Positions 1,614 through 24,176 of a stretch of 25,713 nucleotides of DNA are shown in pieces. The stretch is from the IMG/VR virus record IMGVR_UViG_3300029877_000014, one strand, 5' to 3'. The first letter of the stretch is position 1. Every line of letters begins with the position of its first letter. This stretch comes from a virus. Taxonomy: Duplodnaviria; Heunggongvirae; Uroviricota; Caudoviricetes. The notes beneath the pieces are model-generated. The model searched no databases, was not told the DNA's origin, and saw only the letters and a program-made list of their open reading frames with translations. Made by a program: the position numbers and the translations under genes.

Positions 1614-2254
1614 TTGTCGGTATACCTCTCTCGTTTACTCAGTTGTTCAGGAATATGGTGCAGCAGCTCGCCGTCACCACAGTAAATGGCGGCATGATTC
1701 GGCACCGATGAACCAAAACAGCACAGCAGCACATCACCCGGTTGTGCTGATGACAACGGCACCTGATACAGCCCTGTGGCCTCCAGATTATCCAGATAGA
1801 GATTCTGGTCGTTACGCCACCAGTCATCCTCACGATGAAAATCCGGCATCTCAATCCCCGCCAGATGGTAAGCGTCCCGGAACAGCGTGTAACAATCCGT
1901 CACCCCGTGCTCAAAGCGCCGCCCGGTAAGATGCGGCACACAGCGGAATTTATGAATCGCCCCCCGGCAGACCAGCCACCATGGCAAATCACTCTGCACC
2001 TGCAGCCGCCGGTCAGCCTCACTCAGCCAGGGCAGGCCACCGGGGTGGCTGTGGACCAGCGCCACAATCTCACCCTGCATCTCTGCCCGCAGCCAGTCCT
2101 CCGGCGACATCCGGAAATAATCCTCCGGCTCACCGGAGATATTCACGCAGGGAAAATATCTTTCCCCTTCCGACGTTCTCACCACGAAGCCGCACGACTC
2201 CGCTGGCGCACATCGCCGGGCGTGCGCCAGAATCGCTGATTCTGTCTCTGTCAT
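1511..2254 (-). CDS. K: Tail tip assembly protein K (JAB/MPN-like HSHP motif plus NlpC/P60-like region)
   Basis: 247-aa ORF with ...EIVALVHSHPGG... and a downstream Cys/His region; sits between L and I as in lambda. Confidence 0.75.
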   Translation of the reverse strand: MTETESAILAHARRCAPAESCGFVVRTSEGERYFPCVNISGEPEDYFRMSPEDWLRAEMQGEIVALVHSHPGGLPWLSEADRRLQVQSDLPWWLVCRGAIHKFRCVPHLTGRRFEHGVTDCYTLFRDAYHLAGIEMPDFHREDDWWRNDQNLYLDNLEATGLYQVPLSSAQPGDVLLCCFGSSVPNHAAIYCGDGELLHHIPEQLSKRERYTDKWQRRTHSLWRHRAWRESAFTGIYNDLAAASTCV

Positions 2255-2259
2255 GGGAT

Positions 2260-2958
2260 TTACTGCGAAAGTTTGTTAATGGAAAGGAAGCCGCCAAAGT
2301 TGCCGACATTATTGCGGAACTTACAGCCACTCAGGCATTTGCTGCATTTATCCTTCGTGATTTCGGATGTCGGCTGGTCATATTCATCCGCGACCGCCGG
2401 ACCGTGATAACCGCACTCATCACCGCGATAGGTCCAGGTGCAGGTATTAGCAAGCATGATGCGCCCCGGAAAAACAGCGCCGTCCGTTTCCGTCGGCGTG
2501 GACAGTACAAAGGAGGCACTGACCGCGCTCAGTTCGCTGCACTGCTCAATACGCCAGCGGCTGATCACCTCCTGCTCCGGATCGGCGTCACTGTTTCCGT
2601 TGACGAAGTTCACCGCATCCAGAAAACGGGCGTAAACCTTACGCCTGACCACCGTTCCGCCGACCAGACTCTGCAGGTCTTCCGCCATCCCGGTGACCAT
2701 GCCGTGCAGATTAGAGACTTTCAGCGTTGGCCTTGCACTGGCACCTTTGCCGTTCATCTCAAATCCACTCCCCTGAATGGGATAGGCCTGATACTGCCGA
2801 CTCTGCCAGGTGACAGACTCTCCTTTCTCGTTCTGCTCATTGCAGAAAAAGTAGCGATCCCCGCCTACCTCGGTCAGGTCGATTTCCCAGAGCACCACGC
2901 TGGCCGACTGCTCCGCACGAATGCATTCATTCAGCGTTTCCTGTTGTATGTCCTGCAT
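2260..2958 (-). CDS. L: Minor tail protein L
   Basis: 232-aa ORF, the same length as lambda gpL and in the same position; ATGA start/stop overlap with M at 2958. Confidence 0.8.
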   Translation of the reverse strand: MQDIQQETLNECIRAEQSASVVLWEIDLTEVGGDRYFFCNEQNEKGESVTWQSRQYQAYPIQGSGFEMNGKGASARPTLKVSNLHGMVTGMAEDLQSLVGGTVVRRKVYARFLDAVNFVNGNSDADPEQEVISRWRIEQCSELSAVSASFVLSTPTETDGAVFPGRIMLANTCTWTYRGDECGYHGPAVADEYDQPTSEITKDKCSKCLSGCKFRNNVGNFGGFLSINKLSQ

Positions 2959-3254
2959 CAGATCACCACTTCGTCAAACTGACACGAAAAATCGGTATAG
3001 GTGATATGTTCTGTCGCTGACCACGTTCGACACACCACTCTGATTTTTCTGTTAATACCAGGCGGGCGCCAAAAAAAAGATTTATAGCCTTCATGCCGGG
3101 CTAAAAATTTTTCAAATGAATCACGTTCATTCGCCTCAACTTTGAAATCACAGGTGAAAACGCGCAGAGAATGATTAAGTCCATTTGGACTTCGTTGCTC
3201 ATAACCATCGCCAAATCTTACAGTTTTTATCGATGGTTTATTTTCTGTTTTCAT
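2958..3254 (-). CDS. M: Minor tail protein M
   Basis: The ORF track starts at 3296, which is a GTG overlapping the tape-measure stop. The first ATG is at 3254 (MKTENKPSIKTVRFGDGYEQR...), preceded by GAGGATGGA, and resembles the lambda gpM N-terminus. Confidence 0.7.
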   Translation of the reverse strand: MKTENKPSIKTVRFGDGYEQRSPNGLNHSLRVFTCDFKVEANERDSFEKFLARHEGYKSFFWRPPGINRKIRVVCRTWSATEHITYTDFSCQFDEVVI

Positions 3255-3288
3255 TCCATCCTCTGGTAACCAGTGAAATTCTTCCGTA

Positions 3289-6200
3289 TTAGCCACTTAA
3301 CATTCCCCCATCACGTCGCATATTTAACAGATTGCCCTGCACCCGCTGATCAACCATCCCCATAAGTGCTTTTATTGCCTGAGGGCCAATCTCTCCATTC
3401 TGGCCGTCATTTTGAATAGTGATTTGGTATACAGGGGCATAGGTAATATCTCCGCCTCCATTACCACTTTTACTATTAATAGCTCTGACACCAAGAGAAC
3501 CATCGGATGTTCGTGTTAATGGCATAATGGCTTCCGGACCAGCCTCACCAAAAACACCAGCCCCTTTTGCAAAAGCAAAAAATTGCGGGGAATCATAAAT
3601 ACCGTTCGAATACGTGTTCAATGACGGAGACTCATAAACACCGCCCTTTGCATTCGGAATAAATTTACTAATAGCACTCCCGATAGTTCCTAAAATCCCC
3701 CCCGAAGAACTGTTACTAATGCTGTCGAAAATCCCAGTAATTGAAGCCTTTAATGCTATTCGACTAAGATCCGAAATCACGGAAGTAGCGAAAGAACGAA
3801 AATTTGCCTTGCCTGTCGTGACAAAATCACCCAGCGCATCGGTCATTCCATCAAACATCTGAGTCGTGGTTGATTTTATCTGCTCACTGATATCCTTAGT
3901 GTCATCCAGCCAGTTATTGAATCCCTGGGAGGCACCACTAACCCAGTCTCCTGCCTGAATATCGAGCTGCTCGTTTTTCTGTCTGACAATTTCTTTTTCT
4001 CGTTCCAGAGCATCATTCAGAGCCTGCATTTTCTCCTGAAAAACATGATTTGACATCCCACGGGATTTATCTGCATAGTCACGTTCAAGTTGCAGACGCT
4101 GATTGTTATATTCACGTTCAATCCGCAGTAATTCCTGCTGGCGTTGCTGATTTTTATCGCCAACCCCATAACCAGCAATCTGAATATCATACCCCTGTTG
4201 ACGATTATCAATCGAAGCCTGCAATAAATCACGCCATGCAGCTATTTCGGCGGATTCCTTGATTAGCCTGTTATTTTTTTCAATCGCAACATTTTTCTCC
4301 ATCAACGCGGTTATTTCTTCCCGGTGTAAGAGAAGCGATTTCTGATCCTGGGTTAATTTCGATGACGGTCGTGACTCCAGGTCGGCAATCTGCTGACGCC
4401 ACTTAACCAGTTCCTGTTCAGAGGAACTTAATTTAACGGTTAATTCAGTTTGTGAACTTAGTAACGCATTCTGTTGATTCAGATGATCAATCATTCGTTG
4501 GGCAGCATCATCCGAATAACCTTTCGCCTTTGGTTGCTTTGGATCTTTATAACGCTCATTTATTTGAGCGATAAAATTATTATATTCTTCCTTTGAATAC
4601 TGACTCTTTAGCTTTTCCAGTTTTGCAAGTTCACTAGCTCTCTGCTGCTCCCGGGTCTGATATTGTTTTGAAAAGGCATCTGCTCTCTGTCTGAGTTCAA
4701 TTCCTTCCTGTTGTCGCTTGTTGTAATCGTTTATTGATGAATTTAGGACGTCCTGAGCAATTTTTTCTGCTTGAAGTACGCCCAATTGCTGCTTTAATCG
4801 TGCCAGCCTTTTATTTTGAGCTCCGCCATCTCCAATGCCACCTAACCCGAAAACTCCGGGTCGGGTATTTTTTTCTATTTCATCAATTTGACGGAGAACA
4901 TCTGAGATTTTTTGATCAAGGGAGGCCTCACGGCCAATGTCCAGCATGGAATCCCATGCCCATTTTGCGGAGTCTGCGACAGCTTTCCATGCAGTCTCAA
5001 GATAACCAAGATTTTCTTTAATCTGGTTGGTGCGCTGGATCATTGAGGATGAGTATGCTTCTGTCGCAATGCGGGCGGCCTCCTGCTGGTTCCCTTCATC
5101 CTGTAGCGCCTTAATCTGGTTATAAGTCGCAATTGTCAGAAAATGGTACTGATCATTAAGTTTTGATATGGCACTGACAGGATCCTTTGCAATTTCATTG
5201 AAGTCATTAACCAGTTGTTCGGTTGATATTCCTGTTACTTCGCTCGTTTTTACTATCGCTGTCGTCACTTGCTCCAGCGAACTGCTCGCTACCTTTCCCG
5301 AACGCACAAGCTGGTTTAATACTGCCGCCGCAGCGCCAGTTGTCGAATCAGCCGCATTCCCGGCACGTTGAGCTATATCGGCCAATTGCCCGCTGGTTGT
5401 CCCCAACTGATTTCCGGTAAGAATAAGAGATTTATTAAATTCGTCCTGCTCCTGAGAGCCTTTATAGTAAGCCAGCCCTAAGACGCCAACGGCTGCTGCG
5501 GCCAGGGTAAAAGGATTAATTAATCCCAGCACATAAGAACCAACACCTTTGATCGCCGGGCCAATCCCACCGAACATATCTTTTAGCTGGCCGCCCTGCT
5601 GCATTAACACCATAAAAGGCGACTGACCAGTGGACAACCCAACAACAATATCCGTCATTTGTGCAGGCAACATGCGCATAGCAAAAGCCGTTTGTTTTGC
5701 CGACATTCCGGTTTTGCTTAATTGAGATTGAGTAACCTCAAGCTCACTCCGCATAGCACGAAGTTTTCCAGAAAGTTCCTCATACATTTCAGGAGAGAGC
5801 ATCCCCTTAGCTTTTGCTTCATTGAGCTGTTTCTGTTGTTCTACCAGACGATTAAAAGCAGTTCCGACAGGGTCAAGTTGAGCAATCAGACGTTGCAAAG
5901 CAGCAACCTGTTCATCATGCGCTTTTGCTGCTTCTCGCTCTGCCTGAGCCTCTCCGGTAAGCTCTCGCCGTGTTTCCTGTATTTTTCGGCTATAATTCTC
6001 AAACTGAGAACCATTTATTTTCCCGGATGCAAACGCAGCATTAAGTTCATCCTGCTGTTGTTCAAGATTTCTTAGCGCCGCAGCCAGAGGGTCGATCTTG
6101 TCCAGCATTCTTTGAAAGGCCTGAGCCTGCGCTTCCTGCTGGGCGGCAGCAAGTTTTCCGGCCTTCTCGGCTTCTCTCTGCGCTTGCGCAACCCCGCTCA

Positions 6201-22065: not shown

Positions 22066-22336
22066 AACCCCCACCTCGCAGATGCGGGCGCTGTGTAATG
22101 GAAACAAAAAATGGCCACCAGCGGCCCGTAAAAAACACCCCGTCAAAAGCACCGGCATCCGCAGATGCCCTTTGCGTGGCGTTATTTGATGCGCGCCAGA
22201 TGTGGCGCAAAGAAATGAAATAAGACTTATCGAAAATTAAGGTCAATTTGATGATTTAAACCACTTCTGAAGCTTAGTAGTATGAACATGTCCCCAGAAG
22301 GGGGCCAATACTTATTATTCTTCATGGACTTTGTCC

Positions 22337-22369
22337 CGCGGTCTTAATCCGACGACCGCGCTACTTTTT
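22337..22369 (+). terminator. Plus-strand hairpin CGCGGUC...GACCGCG followed by CUAC-UUUUU (weaker terminator-like unit R1)
   Basis: Preceded by the mini-palindrome GGACTTTGTCCC; read from sequence. The T-run is 4 nt away from the stem. Confidence 0.3.
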
Positions 22370-22406
22370 CACCCTCTCGCAAATTGCTATCTAAAGGACT
22401 TTGTCC

Positions 22407-22439
22407 CACGAGTATTCCAGGATGCTCGTGTCTTTTTTT
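22407..22439 (+). terminator. Plus-strand intrinsic terminator R2 (CACGAG...CUCGUG followed by U-CUUUUUUU)
   Basis: 6-bp GC-containing stem extendable by A-T/wobble pairs, followed by a run of seven T; also preceded by GGACTTTGTCCC. Confidence 0.5.
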
Positions 22440-22455
22440 GTCCTGAGGAAGGAAT

Positions 22456-22479
22456 AAAAAAAACCGCCAAATATGGCGG
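22456..22479 (-). terminator. Minus-strand intrinsic terminator (CCGCCA-UAUU-UGGCGG followed by UUUUUUUU) downstream of the tRNA genes
   Basis: Perfect 6-bp stem with 4-nt loop and eight T on the minus strand; lies back to back with plus-strand terminator R2. Confidence 0.55.
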
Positions 22480-22839
22480 TTGGTCACTGCATGAGATAAA
22501 TCATTTTATTGTAATAAGAATCGAGGTGTCGGGTGCCTCCCGAAATATCCATCTCTACAACAGATATTGTGATTCCCCGCCAAACCACTATCTAAACCAC
22601 CCTCGCACTGAGGAACACCTCTGCGGTGCTTTTACAACACCAGAATGATGCATCACCGACCCTGCCAGGAAATACAAAATCTCCACCGATAATGCACCAT
22701 TCTGCTGCCGTAAAAAAATTAGCACTGTGACTACAACCGACCTCCAATCATAGTCAGAGAACGGATTGTCTTTTTAAAACAACCCACCCCACGTAATAAA
22801 AAATACGCCAGTGCCACGATACAATAAGGCTTGTTTCTC

Positions 22840-22914
<75 letters not shown>

Positions 22915-22917
22915 ATA

Positions 22918-22993
<76 letters not shown>

Positions 22994-23056
22994 ATTGGTT
23001 CTTCAGGGGAGCGATATCACCGAGCAAAGAAGAGTTCCCCCTCAGAACCGTTTTCG

Positions 23057-23084
23057 ATAATACGATTTAATATTCCAATCGCAA
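23057..23084 (-). promoter_or_regulatory. Candidate sigma70 promoter for the tRNA pair (-35 TTGCGA, 16-nt spacer, -10 TATTAT), with an AT-rich upstream tract
   Basis: Minus-strand hexamers read from sequence, about 60 nt upstream of the tRNA-Thr 5' end; 23101-23220 upstream is strongly AT-rich (UP-element-like). Identified by eye. Confidence 0.35.
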
Positions 23085-23346: not shown

Positions 23347-23889
23347 TCAAGCCGTTTTTTGAGCGAATGATTCTCGCATGGGAATGTATAGCGCATACTC
23401 AGCAACGGCCAACCAATTAGCAATTCGCTTTTCGCATGTGCTAAAACACCACTCTGGGTGTGCATCATTTAGCAATTCAGCCATTTTGCGTTTGGTCATC
23501 CCCCGCCCCTCATACCGTTGCCGAAGGACGCTAATCAATCCTGGATGCTCTGCCAGCACCTCACTTATGACCCGATCAATACATAACGCCTCTGCATCAG
23601 TACAATGCGCCAGCCAGCTCTTTTGCTTACCGTTAATCATATCCCGCAAAAAAGCCTCAAGTTCAGACTTGTTCAGACCTGCTTTTTTCATCCTCCGGAG
23701 CGCCTCGTTAATTGCCGTTTTTGTCAGCTTTTTAGAGGCCAACAACTGGTTGAACATATTCCCCGTCTTACCGCCGCCAATATACGACCAGCGCCCCCAC
23801 ATGCGCAGTTTTCCCTGAATCCAGACACTTTCCAGCGTGGTGAGACGAAGGTGTTCCCCGCTTTTGCCTGTATTTGTTGGGTAAATCAT
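23347..23889 (-). CDS. Q: Late-gene antitermination protein Q
   Basis: Start at ATG 23889 (MIYPTNTGKSGEHLRLTTLESVWIQGKLRMWGRW...) with ATGA overlap to the upstream gene; the track's start at 24009 is an upstream extension. Sits immediately before the tRNA/lysis region; Cys/His-containing C-terminal part. Confidence 0.7.
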   Translation of the reverse strand: MIYPTNTGKSGEHLRLTTLESVWIQGKLRMWGRWSYIGGGKTGNMFNQLLASKKLTKTAINEALRRMKKAGLNKSELEAFLRDMINGKQKSWLAHCTDAEALCIDRVISEVLAEHPGLISVLRQRYEGRGMTKRKMAELLNDAHPEWCFSTCEKRIANWLAVAEYALYIPMRESFAQKTA

Positions 23890-24176
23890 AAATAACCTTC
23901 CTTTCTCCAGATTTCTTGCGTGCGAAAAACACCTTCTGCATGCATCAGGCGTAAATCTTCTTTGGTGTAATCGCTTGTTTTTACCCGCCCGTCGATTAAA
24001 TCGTGGCATGAGCTACAGGCAATCGCCGCCTGCATATCGTGTGGTTTTGTCGCTGTTCCGCACGTTCCCGCCAGTCGGTAATGCGCCAGCACAGACGTTT
24101 CCGGATCGTGATTGCAGTAGCCAAGAATTCTGACGGTGCACATCCGCCCCCGCGCCGCTTTACGTAAATCCACCAT
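23886..24176 (-). CDS. NinG/YbcO-like zinc-binding protein (DUF1364-type)
   Basis: 96-aa ORF with two Cys pairs (CTVRILGYCNHDPE ... CSSCHDLIDGR), resembling DLP12 YbcO as I recall it; translationally coupled on both sides. Confidence 0.55.
   Translation of the reverse strand: MVDLRKAARGRMCTVRILGYCNHDPETSVLAHYRLAGTCGTATKPHDMQAAIACSSCHDLIDGRVKTSDYTKEDLRLMHAEGVFRTQEIWRKEGYL

Follow-up and report, generated by a model that had tools for sequence, protein, structure and literature searches.

A conserved, structured RNA region behind a phage tRNA pair at the moron site of lambdoid Escherichia prophages

The roughly 385 nt that follow a pair of tRNA genes in the late region of a lambdoid prophage are a real, conserved and structured non-coding RNA region, of the kind represented by the small RNAs from the moron site of such prophages. 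What is notable here is the source, namely the 3' spacer of a phage tRNA operon, together with the presence of a long hairpin. The explanation that best accounts for the observations is that this trailer is a long 3' external transcribed spacer yielding an STnc100/PasD-like, probably Hfq-binding sRNA, and we give that explanation about an even chance of being correct. Hfq-binding sRNAs encoded between pR' and the lysis genes of lambdoid prophages (AsxR, AgvB, StxS and PasD) are already known to rewire host regulation. If the explanation holds, this class would gain members in non-toxigenic, Rac-like prophages, which occur in about 6% of complete E. coli genomes. It would also gain a version overlooked by standard Rfam annotation and a different route of biogenesis, from the 3' spacer of a phage tRNA operon. 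The practical gain would be modest, consisting of a further candidate family of riboregulators and a clear-cut system in which to test the production of sRNAs linked to tRNAs.

The tRNA cassette and its trailer

The window, by which we mean the whole stretch of 25,713 nt that was analysed (IMG/VR record IMGVR_UViG_3300029877_000014), showed no difference from Escherichia phage vB_EcoS-683R6 in the 1151 bases that were compared (100% identity). The late region of the prophage is encoded on the minus strand, where a YbcO-like gene is followed by Q, tRNA-Thr, tRNA-Gly, about 775 nt of intervening DNA and then the P21-type holin, lysozyme and spanin genes. The 775 nt are without a convincing gene, and the trailer makes up the first 360-385 nt of them. 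The location is a moron site, with the Q/pR' region on one side and the lysis genes on the other. The features of this region, all on the minus strand, are as follows.

23347-24009, minus strand: Q (DUF1133, with a weak Phage_antitermQ match)
start of the 23350-23236 unit, minus strand: pR'-like promoter directly after Q, with -35 TTGATT, which overlaps the stop codon of Q, a spacer of 17 nt, and -10 TTCAAT
23267-23236, minus strand: tR'-like terminator, upstream of the tRNAs (terminator scan)
23057..23084, minus strand: predicted sigma-70 promoter of the tRNA cassette, with -35 TTGCGA, a 16-nt spacer and -10 TATTAT (promoter scan, 9 of 12 hexamer positions)
22994..23049, minus strand: 5' leader of the tRNA precursor, whose two ends, GGUUCUGAGGGG and CCCCUGAAGAACC, pair with each other beside the 5' end of the tRNA (read from the sequence)
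22918..22993, minus strand: tRNA-Thr, anticodon UGU (ARAGORN; Rfam tRNA, 73.8 bits)
22840..22914, minus strand: tRNA-Gly, anticodon UCC, with encoded CCA end (ARAGORN; Rfam tRNA, 63.1 bits)
22588-22725 and 22592-22747, minus strand: ORFs of 45 and 51 aa, overlapping the long hairpin (ORF list)
22454..22481, minus strand: intrinsic terminator of the tRNA cassette, AACCGCC-AUAUUU-GGCGGUU then U8 (terminator scan)

The first-pass annotation of this DNA described an interval bounded by a tRNA 3' end and a minus-strand terminator, and the ARAGORN and Rfam assignments and the terminator scan agree on those limits. The trailer extends from 22840 to 22455 on the minus strand, that is from the 3' end of tRNA-Gly (22840) to the intrinsic terminator, whose stem (22481-22462) contains 8 pairs, 5 of them G-C, before the run of eight U residues. 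Among homologues the stem and the U-run are invariant and the loop is variable. A scan of the minus strand between tRNA-Gly and the stem at 22481 detected no second terminator-like site, and a search for extra or decayed tRNAs in the trailer with ARAGORN and Rfam found none.

The trailer is non-coding, a conclusion that follows from the breakage of its ORFs in most homologues and the lack of a Pfam match. Every trailer ORF is frameshifted, stopped or start-less in most of 57 full-length homologues, and a Pfam search of these ORFs returned no match, in agreement with the earlier view that neither strand carries a convincing ORF. The 105-aa plus-strand ORF at 22331-22648, which had been taken for noise, is indeed present and behaves like noise, with its in-trailer part intact in 0 of the 57. 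The accompanying statement that the minus strand offers only frames of some 20 codons was slightly off, given the two ORFs of 45 and 51 aa listed above; these are the longest on that strand and are intact in only 9 and 2 of the homologues.

A small protein, or a type I toxin with a highly folded mRNA, might nonetheless be proposed from the overlap of those two ORFs with the long hairpin, and hok/sok-type loci are common in these prophages. PGAP annotates nothing over the trailer in most genomes and hypothetical proteins in some, which lends the proposal a second argument. Database entries of this kind over the trailer include URC09393.1 (ON470595), WP_063103749.1 and WP_000904532.1, and the annotated sites are 22331-22648 (plus strand) in the window, 2690-3103 in contig L005 and 2613-2873 in contig L007. 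These hypothetical proteins are probably spurious because they lie on differing strands and in differing frames, are unconserved and have no Pfam match, and their flagging is one outcome of the analysis. Against a coding function, no ORF is kept in frame across the homologues, and a 15-codon ATG frame inside the long hairpin gains a stop in some variants; we regard a protein product as very improbable. A literature search with exact sequence strings from the trailer found nothing.

Upstream of the tRNAs, the cassette promoter is preceded by an A+T-rich stretch and is retained in pattern across six diverged types of upstream sequence, with -35 hexamers TTGAAA, TTGCGA or TTGAAG, -10 hexamers TATTAT, TAATAT or TATCAT, and 16-nt spacing preserved in spacers of differing sequence. 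The recurrence of this pattern behind a methyltransferase gene argues that the promoter belongs to the cassette rather than being pR'. The pairing between the leader ends, GGUUCU/AGAACC, becomes GGUUCC/GGAACC in other leader types, a compensatory change of U-A to C-G. A separate internal promoter for the 3' domain is unlikely, as the only match, a weak one at 22532-22503, would give an RNA of about 40 nt. The trailer has the layout of a tRNA 3' external transcribed spacer (3'ETS), lying between the last tRNA and a terminator, with no other terminator between and with a conserved promoter upstream, and would presumably be transcribed as one. The earlier proposal that the interval is co-transcribed with the tRNAs and could be a processed 3'-derived sRNA is thereby supported on comparative grounds, namely by the conserved promoter, the absence of a terminator before 22481, and the strand-specific structure and STnc100/PasD similarity described below, from which expression and processing are predicted.

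A second proposal, that the interval could hold the Q utilisation site, fared less well. The trailer does lie between Q and the lysis genes and does form stable stem-loops, which would suit a Q utilisation site or some other signal for antitermination, for example a put-like RNA. However, the same trailer is found behind three unrelated Q types and behind a DNA methyltransferase gene, whereas qut is tied to its own pR', and a pR'-like promoter and tR'-like terminator are present instead directly after Q, upstream of the tRNAs and some 500 nt upstream of the trailer. The trailer is therefore not the Q utilisation site, being independent of Q type. Terminators at the equivalent place follow other Q types too. 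A put-like element in front of the cassette terminator would, moreover, let constitutive transcription enter the lysis genes, and an antitermination role of any sort is hardly credible. The segment 23236-23350 (minus strand) is itself a probable pR'/tR' unit with a -10-like TACGCT in its early transcribed region, and its predicted RNA of about 80 nt would be analogous to lambda 6S RNA or StxS; Rfam reports only weak matches there (STnc370, OrzO-P and isrK).

Structure and conservation of the trailer RNA

Folded as a minus-strand RNA, the trailer has a minimum free energy (MFE) of -142 kcal/mol (z = -7.0, with 0 of 100 shuffles as good), compared to -90 kcal/mol (z = -3.8) as a plus-strand RNA. 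The trailer is under selection for minus-strand RNA structure, and that it functions as a minus-strand RNA is very likely. Its structure can be divided into three modules, again all on the minus strand.

22729..22839, minus strand: module A, three small hairpins (MFE fold)
22791-22808, 22757-22790 and 22729-22755, minus strand: hairpins a1, a2 and a3 of module A (MFE fold)
22626..22725, minus strand: module B, a long imperfect hairpin with an apical stem-loop (fold of -47.8 kcal/mol, z = -6.0)
22631-22714, minus strand: core of module B, about 29 pairs (~30 bp)
22711-22720, minus strand: U-run, 5' base of the module B hairpin
22482..22648, minus strand: module C, an STnc100/PasD-like multi-branch domain (Rfam alignment, covariation)
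22625-22641, minus strand: possible 5' hairpin of module C
22616-22621 with 22523-22528, minus strand: closing stem of module C, GAGGUG/CACCUC
22601-22613, 22544-22568 and 22530-22542 (CGGGAGGCACCCG), minus strand: inner hairpins of module C
22482-22522, minus strand: single-stranded A/U-rich linker of module C (41 nt), candidate Hfq-binding and seed region

Module B is the most conserved block of the trailer, exceeding its flanks, and the hairpin always lies about 110 nt after tRNA-Gly. Among 39 distinct sequences, 98.9% of the cells pair, compared to 31-56% in controls with the partners displaced by 1-3 columns, and pair 32:99 is GC in 18 and AU in 17 of them. The apical stem occurs as GGAGAU/AUUUCC, AGAGA/UCUCU or GGGCU/AGCCC, which are unrelated sequences with the same fold. 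By our own count, 222 of the 1131 hairpin cells (~20%) are G·U; because these would be A·C mismatches on the opposite strand, the functional strand is fixed as the minus strand. The hairpin contains 19 contiguous pairs and, beyond one unpaired base, a further 9, and so provides the near-continuous duplex of about two turns (at least 20 bp) expected of an RNase III substrate. Matches of the trailer to miRNA precursors in Rfam at permissive thresholds do no more than report this long hairpin.

The same pattern holds for module C, where 99.5% of cells pair in 43 distinct sequences and 43-54% do so after sliding. Six pairs show double changes; for example, pair 26:118 of the closing stem is UA in 22 and CG in 19 sequences, and pair 77:99 is GC in 30 and AU in 12. 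For modules B and C, 0 of 500 shuffles reached the observed covariation score. The statistics for both modules are generous because the structures were derived from the same alignments and the homologues are mostly 80-100% identical. Module A exists in two sequence types that are only about 40% alike, and by eye on the alignment the three hairpins fall at the same places in both (e.g. GCGUA/UACGU versus ACACA/UGUGG); RNAalifold gave no usable consensus for module A from an alignment that mixed the two unrelated types. The first-pass annotation had put conservation and covariation among relatives forward as a check; the trailer proved to be conserved, and modules B and C carry pair-preserving changes.

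A 406-nt query covering the trailer matches 328 of 5426 complete E. coli genomes at 80-100% identity, and in 216 of the 328 the match covers at least 80% of the query. Counted as the best hit per record, the identity is at least 99% in 51, 95-99% in 7, 90-95% in 63 and 80-90% in 209. E. coli W, for instance, has a copy of 99% identity at NC_017664.1 1515174-1515578. A pattern derived from the core matches 112 IMG/VR stretches, from which 107 copies (78 distinct) could be extracted, and 105 of these 107 viral-contig copies begin directly at the acceptor (3') end of tRNA-Gly. The gene upstream of the cassette varies, being a DUF1133-type Q, one of two other Q types or a DNA methyltransferase, and in some copies the tRNA array is extended by Ile and Arg genes. 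Thus the trailer, as a unit following tRNA-Gly, is conserved in many Escherichia prophages. When one genome from each of 185,579 species was scanned with a hairpin pattern, only 5 matches were found, all in unrelated organisms (Dehalococcoidia, Ruminiclostridium and others); these say nothing about distribution, since about 4 were estimated by chance for that pattern. The element seems to be confined to strain-variable Escherichia prophages, and the Pas sRNAs have been reported to be confined in the same way.

This narrow distribution, with the species-representative scan at chance level, can also be read as the mark of a non-functional remnant, either decayed moron DNA or a decayed STnc100 copy hitch-hiking with the tRNA genes, whose conservation would reflect recent descent. 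Such a reading would fit the 80-100% identity of most copies and the shuffling of modules by recombination. It does not explain why some 99% of cells pair, with compensatory swaps of GC and AU and with one-sided changes nearly all of which allow G·U pairing on the minus strand and not on the plus strand, nor why module A and the apical stem of the hairpin retain the same fold in unrelated sequence versions, nor why the hairpin is better conserved than its flanks. We therefore consider a remnant improbable.

The modules are not always found together. Short variants (L007, L012, L019 and L082) keep the hairpin, a linker and the terminator and are missing the ~100-nt multi-branch core; their linker is a different one that is itself conserved (…AAGCAAAACCUGGAAAUACAUCC…). 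Another contig, L045, contains half of the long hairpin and module C, without tRNAs. What stays constant beside the tRNAs is the long hairpin, and the 3' domain and linker come in alleles. Because the short variants keep the hairpin without the core, the central function may sit in the hairpin and not in the STnc100-like domain.

Duplicated and partial copies also occur. Escherichia phage SerU-LTIIb (L002, KU052038), which carries the LT-IIb toxin, has two tRNA-plus-trailer cassettes, at 1122-1680 and 3028-3570. In the second cassette, which comes after a duplicated fragment of the holin, the 5' hairpin module is of another type; the arrangement points to duplication of the cassette through recombination. 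A segment of the STnc100-like core, about 105 nt in length (query positions 224-332), is also present at ~82% identity on two E. coli plasmids of 73-105 kb (NZ_CP159688.1 and NZ_CP098233.1).

Probable relationship to STnc100 and PasD

Searches of both strands against Rfam at permissive thresholds yielded only the tRNAs above the family cutoffs. In the cmscan check recommended in the first-pass annotation, the trailer itself reaches no Rfam threshold and nevertheless has a sub-threshold match to STnc100 (RF02076) that is full-length, aligning positions 1-206 of the model to 22452-22648 with 22.9 bits (E = 0.005 in a 411-nt search). Every trailer variant tested has such a full-length match in the same place, at 22.9-28.6 bits. 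The gathering threshold of 47 bits was missed by the window and by the best variants (28.6 bits in L077 and 27.3 bits in L003), and formal membership in STnc100 fails for this reason. For comparison, the same model gives 37.7 bits to PasD1 and 41.4 bits to PasD2 of EPEC E2348/69, and 129.8 and 109.2 bits to Rfam-confirmed STnc100 copies in two phages. Rfam matches of the trailer to GcvB, isrK, AgvB and STnc240 were set aside as terminator-driven noise.

The architecture of STnc100 is reproduced in the trailer, from the closing stem and the inner hairpins, including CGGGAGGCACCCG, to the linker and the terminator. Common to both are a closing stem (xxGGUG/CACCxx), a first hairpin (CCUC-loop-GAGG) and the motif CGGGAGGCACCCG-N-CACC, as well as an A/U-rich linker, an intrinsic terminator, a length of ~190-200 nt and an orientation on the late-gene strand. 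Within the CGGGAGGCACCCG motif, 18-19 positions match the STnc100 model by our own count, and the closing stem covaries. Position agrees as well, for in the interval from pR' to the lysis genes each comes immediately behind a moron, which is stx2B for STnc100 and the tRNA genes here; STnc100 is found 75 nt downstream of stx2B (PMC12370729), and by position it is probably the same as EcOnc27/sRNA103 of Stx phages. Unlike STnc100, the trailer domain is joined to a tRNA precursor and has a long hairpin in front of it.

PasD offers a second point of comparison. PasD is a prophage sRNA of ~172 nt, stabilised by Hfq and encoded near Q and upstream of the holin/lysozyme operon, with its seed in the linker just before the terminator; PasD1 and PasD2 of EPEC E2348/69 are homologues of EcOnc13, and shared ancestry of PasD and STnc100 has been proposed in the literature on the basis of sub-threshold cmscan matches. 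Like PasD, the trailer is a prophage element near Q and upstream of the lysis genes and a sub-threshold relative of STnc100, but PasD follows a DUF3927 gene and not tRNAs. A BLAST comparison of the trailer with the PasD loci (L120 and L121) gave no match, and the PasD seed UGUGAG is absent from the linker of the window, GAUUCUUAUUACAAUAAAAUGAUUUAUCUCAUGCAGUGACCA.

A covariance model built from the trailers (R1) has as its best non-trailer match the Rfam-confirmed STnc100 of contig L063 (22.7 bits, E of 0.002-0.006). The model misses the STnc100 copy of L045 and gives the two PasD RNAs only 7.5 and 5.7 bits (E of 3-7). Judged from these sequence and fold similarities, common ancestry of the trailer's 3' domain with STnc100/PasD is somewhat favoured. 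Since L063 carries a confirmed STnc100 as well as a trailer, the two would be paralogous at best. L063 (IMG/VR UViG_2778260991_000005; 1849-5542, minus strand) has a layout resembling that of Stx phages, with three tRNAs, ORFs of 331 and 89 aa that have the sizes of AB5 toxin subunits, STnc100, tRNA-Thr, tRNA-Gly and the trailer, in that order; the confirmed STnc100 (129.8 bits) lies about 75 nt after the 89-aa ORF.

Proposed production, possible functions and neighbouring elements

The simplest way to model production of the RNA is as a self-contained cassette comprising promoter, leader, tRNA-Thr, tRNA-Gly, the ~385-nt trailer and the terminator. In the lysogen, the cassette promoter would give rise to a transcript of ~590 nt ending at about 22455-22462, from which the tRNAs would be released by RNase P and other tRNA-processing enzymes. 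The trailer could then be cut by RNase E at the A/U-rich base of the hairpin, or by RNase III within the hairpin, leaving a stable RNA of ~190-270 nt. If the hairpin were cut, its 3' strand, GGUGUUGUAAAAGCACC, could refold as a small 5' hairpin; this helix, helix 1, is paired in 100% of the sequences. The released RNA would bind Hfq by means of the linker and the U-tail of the terminator, and the sequence has the features of an Hfq-dependent sRNA in this respect, namely a tail of eight U residues (at least six) and, adjacent to it, the 41-nt A/U-rich linker that is predicted to be single-stranded. The variable linker just upstream of the terminator, at the equivalent of the PasD seed site, might base-pair with RNAs of the host or the phage. 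In the lytic cycle, polymerase modified by Q and coming from pR' would read through the terminator, and the trailer would become part of the leader of the late mRNA. That the product is a trans-acting Hfq sRNA is suggested by these sequence features, and we put its likelihood a little below even.

An alternative is that the trailer acts only in cis, as a processing or stability element of the tRNA precursor and the late transcript. The hairpin could be a site of RNase III cleavage or a stem that protects a 5' end, and might keep the tRNAs apart from the RNA that follows, guard the lysis-gene mRNA or aid tRNA maturation. Several observations would be well explained in this way, including the status of the long hairpin as the most conserved part, its retention in short variants that lack the STnc100-like core, its constant distance from tRNA-Gly, and a duplex of 19 contiguous and 9 further pairs that suffices for RNase III. 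A purely cis-acting element leaves unexplained, however, the multi-branch domain with its covarying closing stem, and also the combination of A/U-rich linker and terminator that is typical of Hfq sRNAs and the similarity to STnc100; a terminator inside the cassette would, furthermore, be pointless for an element of the late mRNA alone. We judge the cis-only alternative unlikely, though a good deal less so than a remnant.

A more elaborate form of the sRNA explanation is that the cassette is a mobile "tRNA plus riboregulator" module in which the hairpin is a dedicated processing switch for RNase III or RNase E whose 3' strand refolds as a 5' hairpin, or in which the hairpin has a function of its own, e.g. 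as a double-stranded-RNA decoy or protein-binding site. This proposal is speculative and on balance doubtful. If correct, it would mean that constitutive tRNA expression in lysogens is coupled to a phage regulatory RNA with exchangeable seed alleles.

Other known systems provide partial precedents for the sRNA explanation. The RNA 3'ETS-leuZ, from the glyW-cysT-leuZ tRNA operon of E. coli, reportedly binds Hfq and acts as an sRNA sponge. It is chromosomal and only ~50 nt long. As in 3'ETS-leuZ, the trailer sits between the last tRNA of an operon and an intrinsic terminator, but at ~385 nt it is far longer, multi-domain and phage-borne, and the two have no sequence relationship. StxS, the short pR'-tR' transcript of Stx phages, is an Hfq-binding regulator in lysogens. 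By analogy the trailer might have a comparable role, as both would be by-products of the transcription architecture of the late region. StxS is made from pR' itself, in contrast to the trailer, which has its own promoter, and the pR'-tR' counterpart in the window is the separate unit at 23350-23236, with its RNA of ~80 nt.

Just beyond the trailer, two features are found on the plus strand.

22285..22442, plus strand: tentative convergent structured RNA, possible antisense partner in an sRNA dyad (fold, terminator scan)
22407-22430, plus strand: terminator of 10 pairs, on the plus strand only, then U7 (terminator scan)

The 22285-22442 segment folds to -46.2 kcal/mol as a plus-strand RNA (z = -4.3) and to -40.5 kcal/mol as a minus-strand RNA (z = -1.2), and its terminator (22430) faces that of the trailer (22462) at a distance of ~30 nt. 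In at least 8 Sakai prophages, convergent Hfq-binding sRNAs arranged as dyads have been described in the interval from pR' to the lysis genes (Tree et al. 2014 and a later review). The arrangement here resembles the dyads AsxR/EcOnc27 and AgvB/EcOnc06 in its back-to-back terminators between pR' and the lysis genes, and by that analogy the trailer RNA would be the sense member of a convergent sRNA dyad. The plus-strand candidate differs from the known anti-sRNAs in being longer than their 51-60 nt. An Rfam search of 22285-22442 on the plus strand matched no family, AsxR and AgvB included. The segment contains two direct repeats of GGACTTTGTCC, each beside a hairpin.

An RNA of the PasA/PasC kind was considered for the region upstream of the holin and set aside, as the sequences are not similar by eye. 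A block at 22100-22230 (minus strand), immediately before the holin, is conserved in all contexts, even in copies without the middle spacer; among its elements are the hairpins GCGCCACAUCUGGCGC and GGCAUCUGCGGAUGCC, as well as a terminator-like sequence, GGCCGCUGGUGGCC, with AUUUUUU after it (22126-22113).
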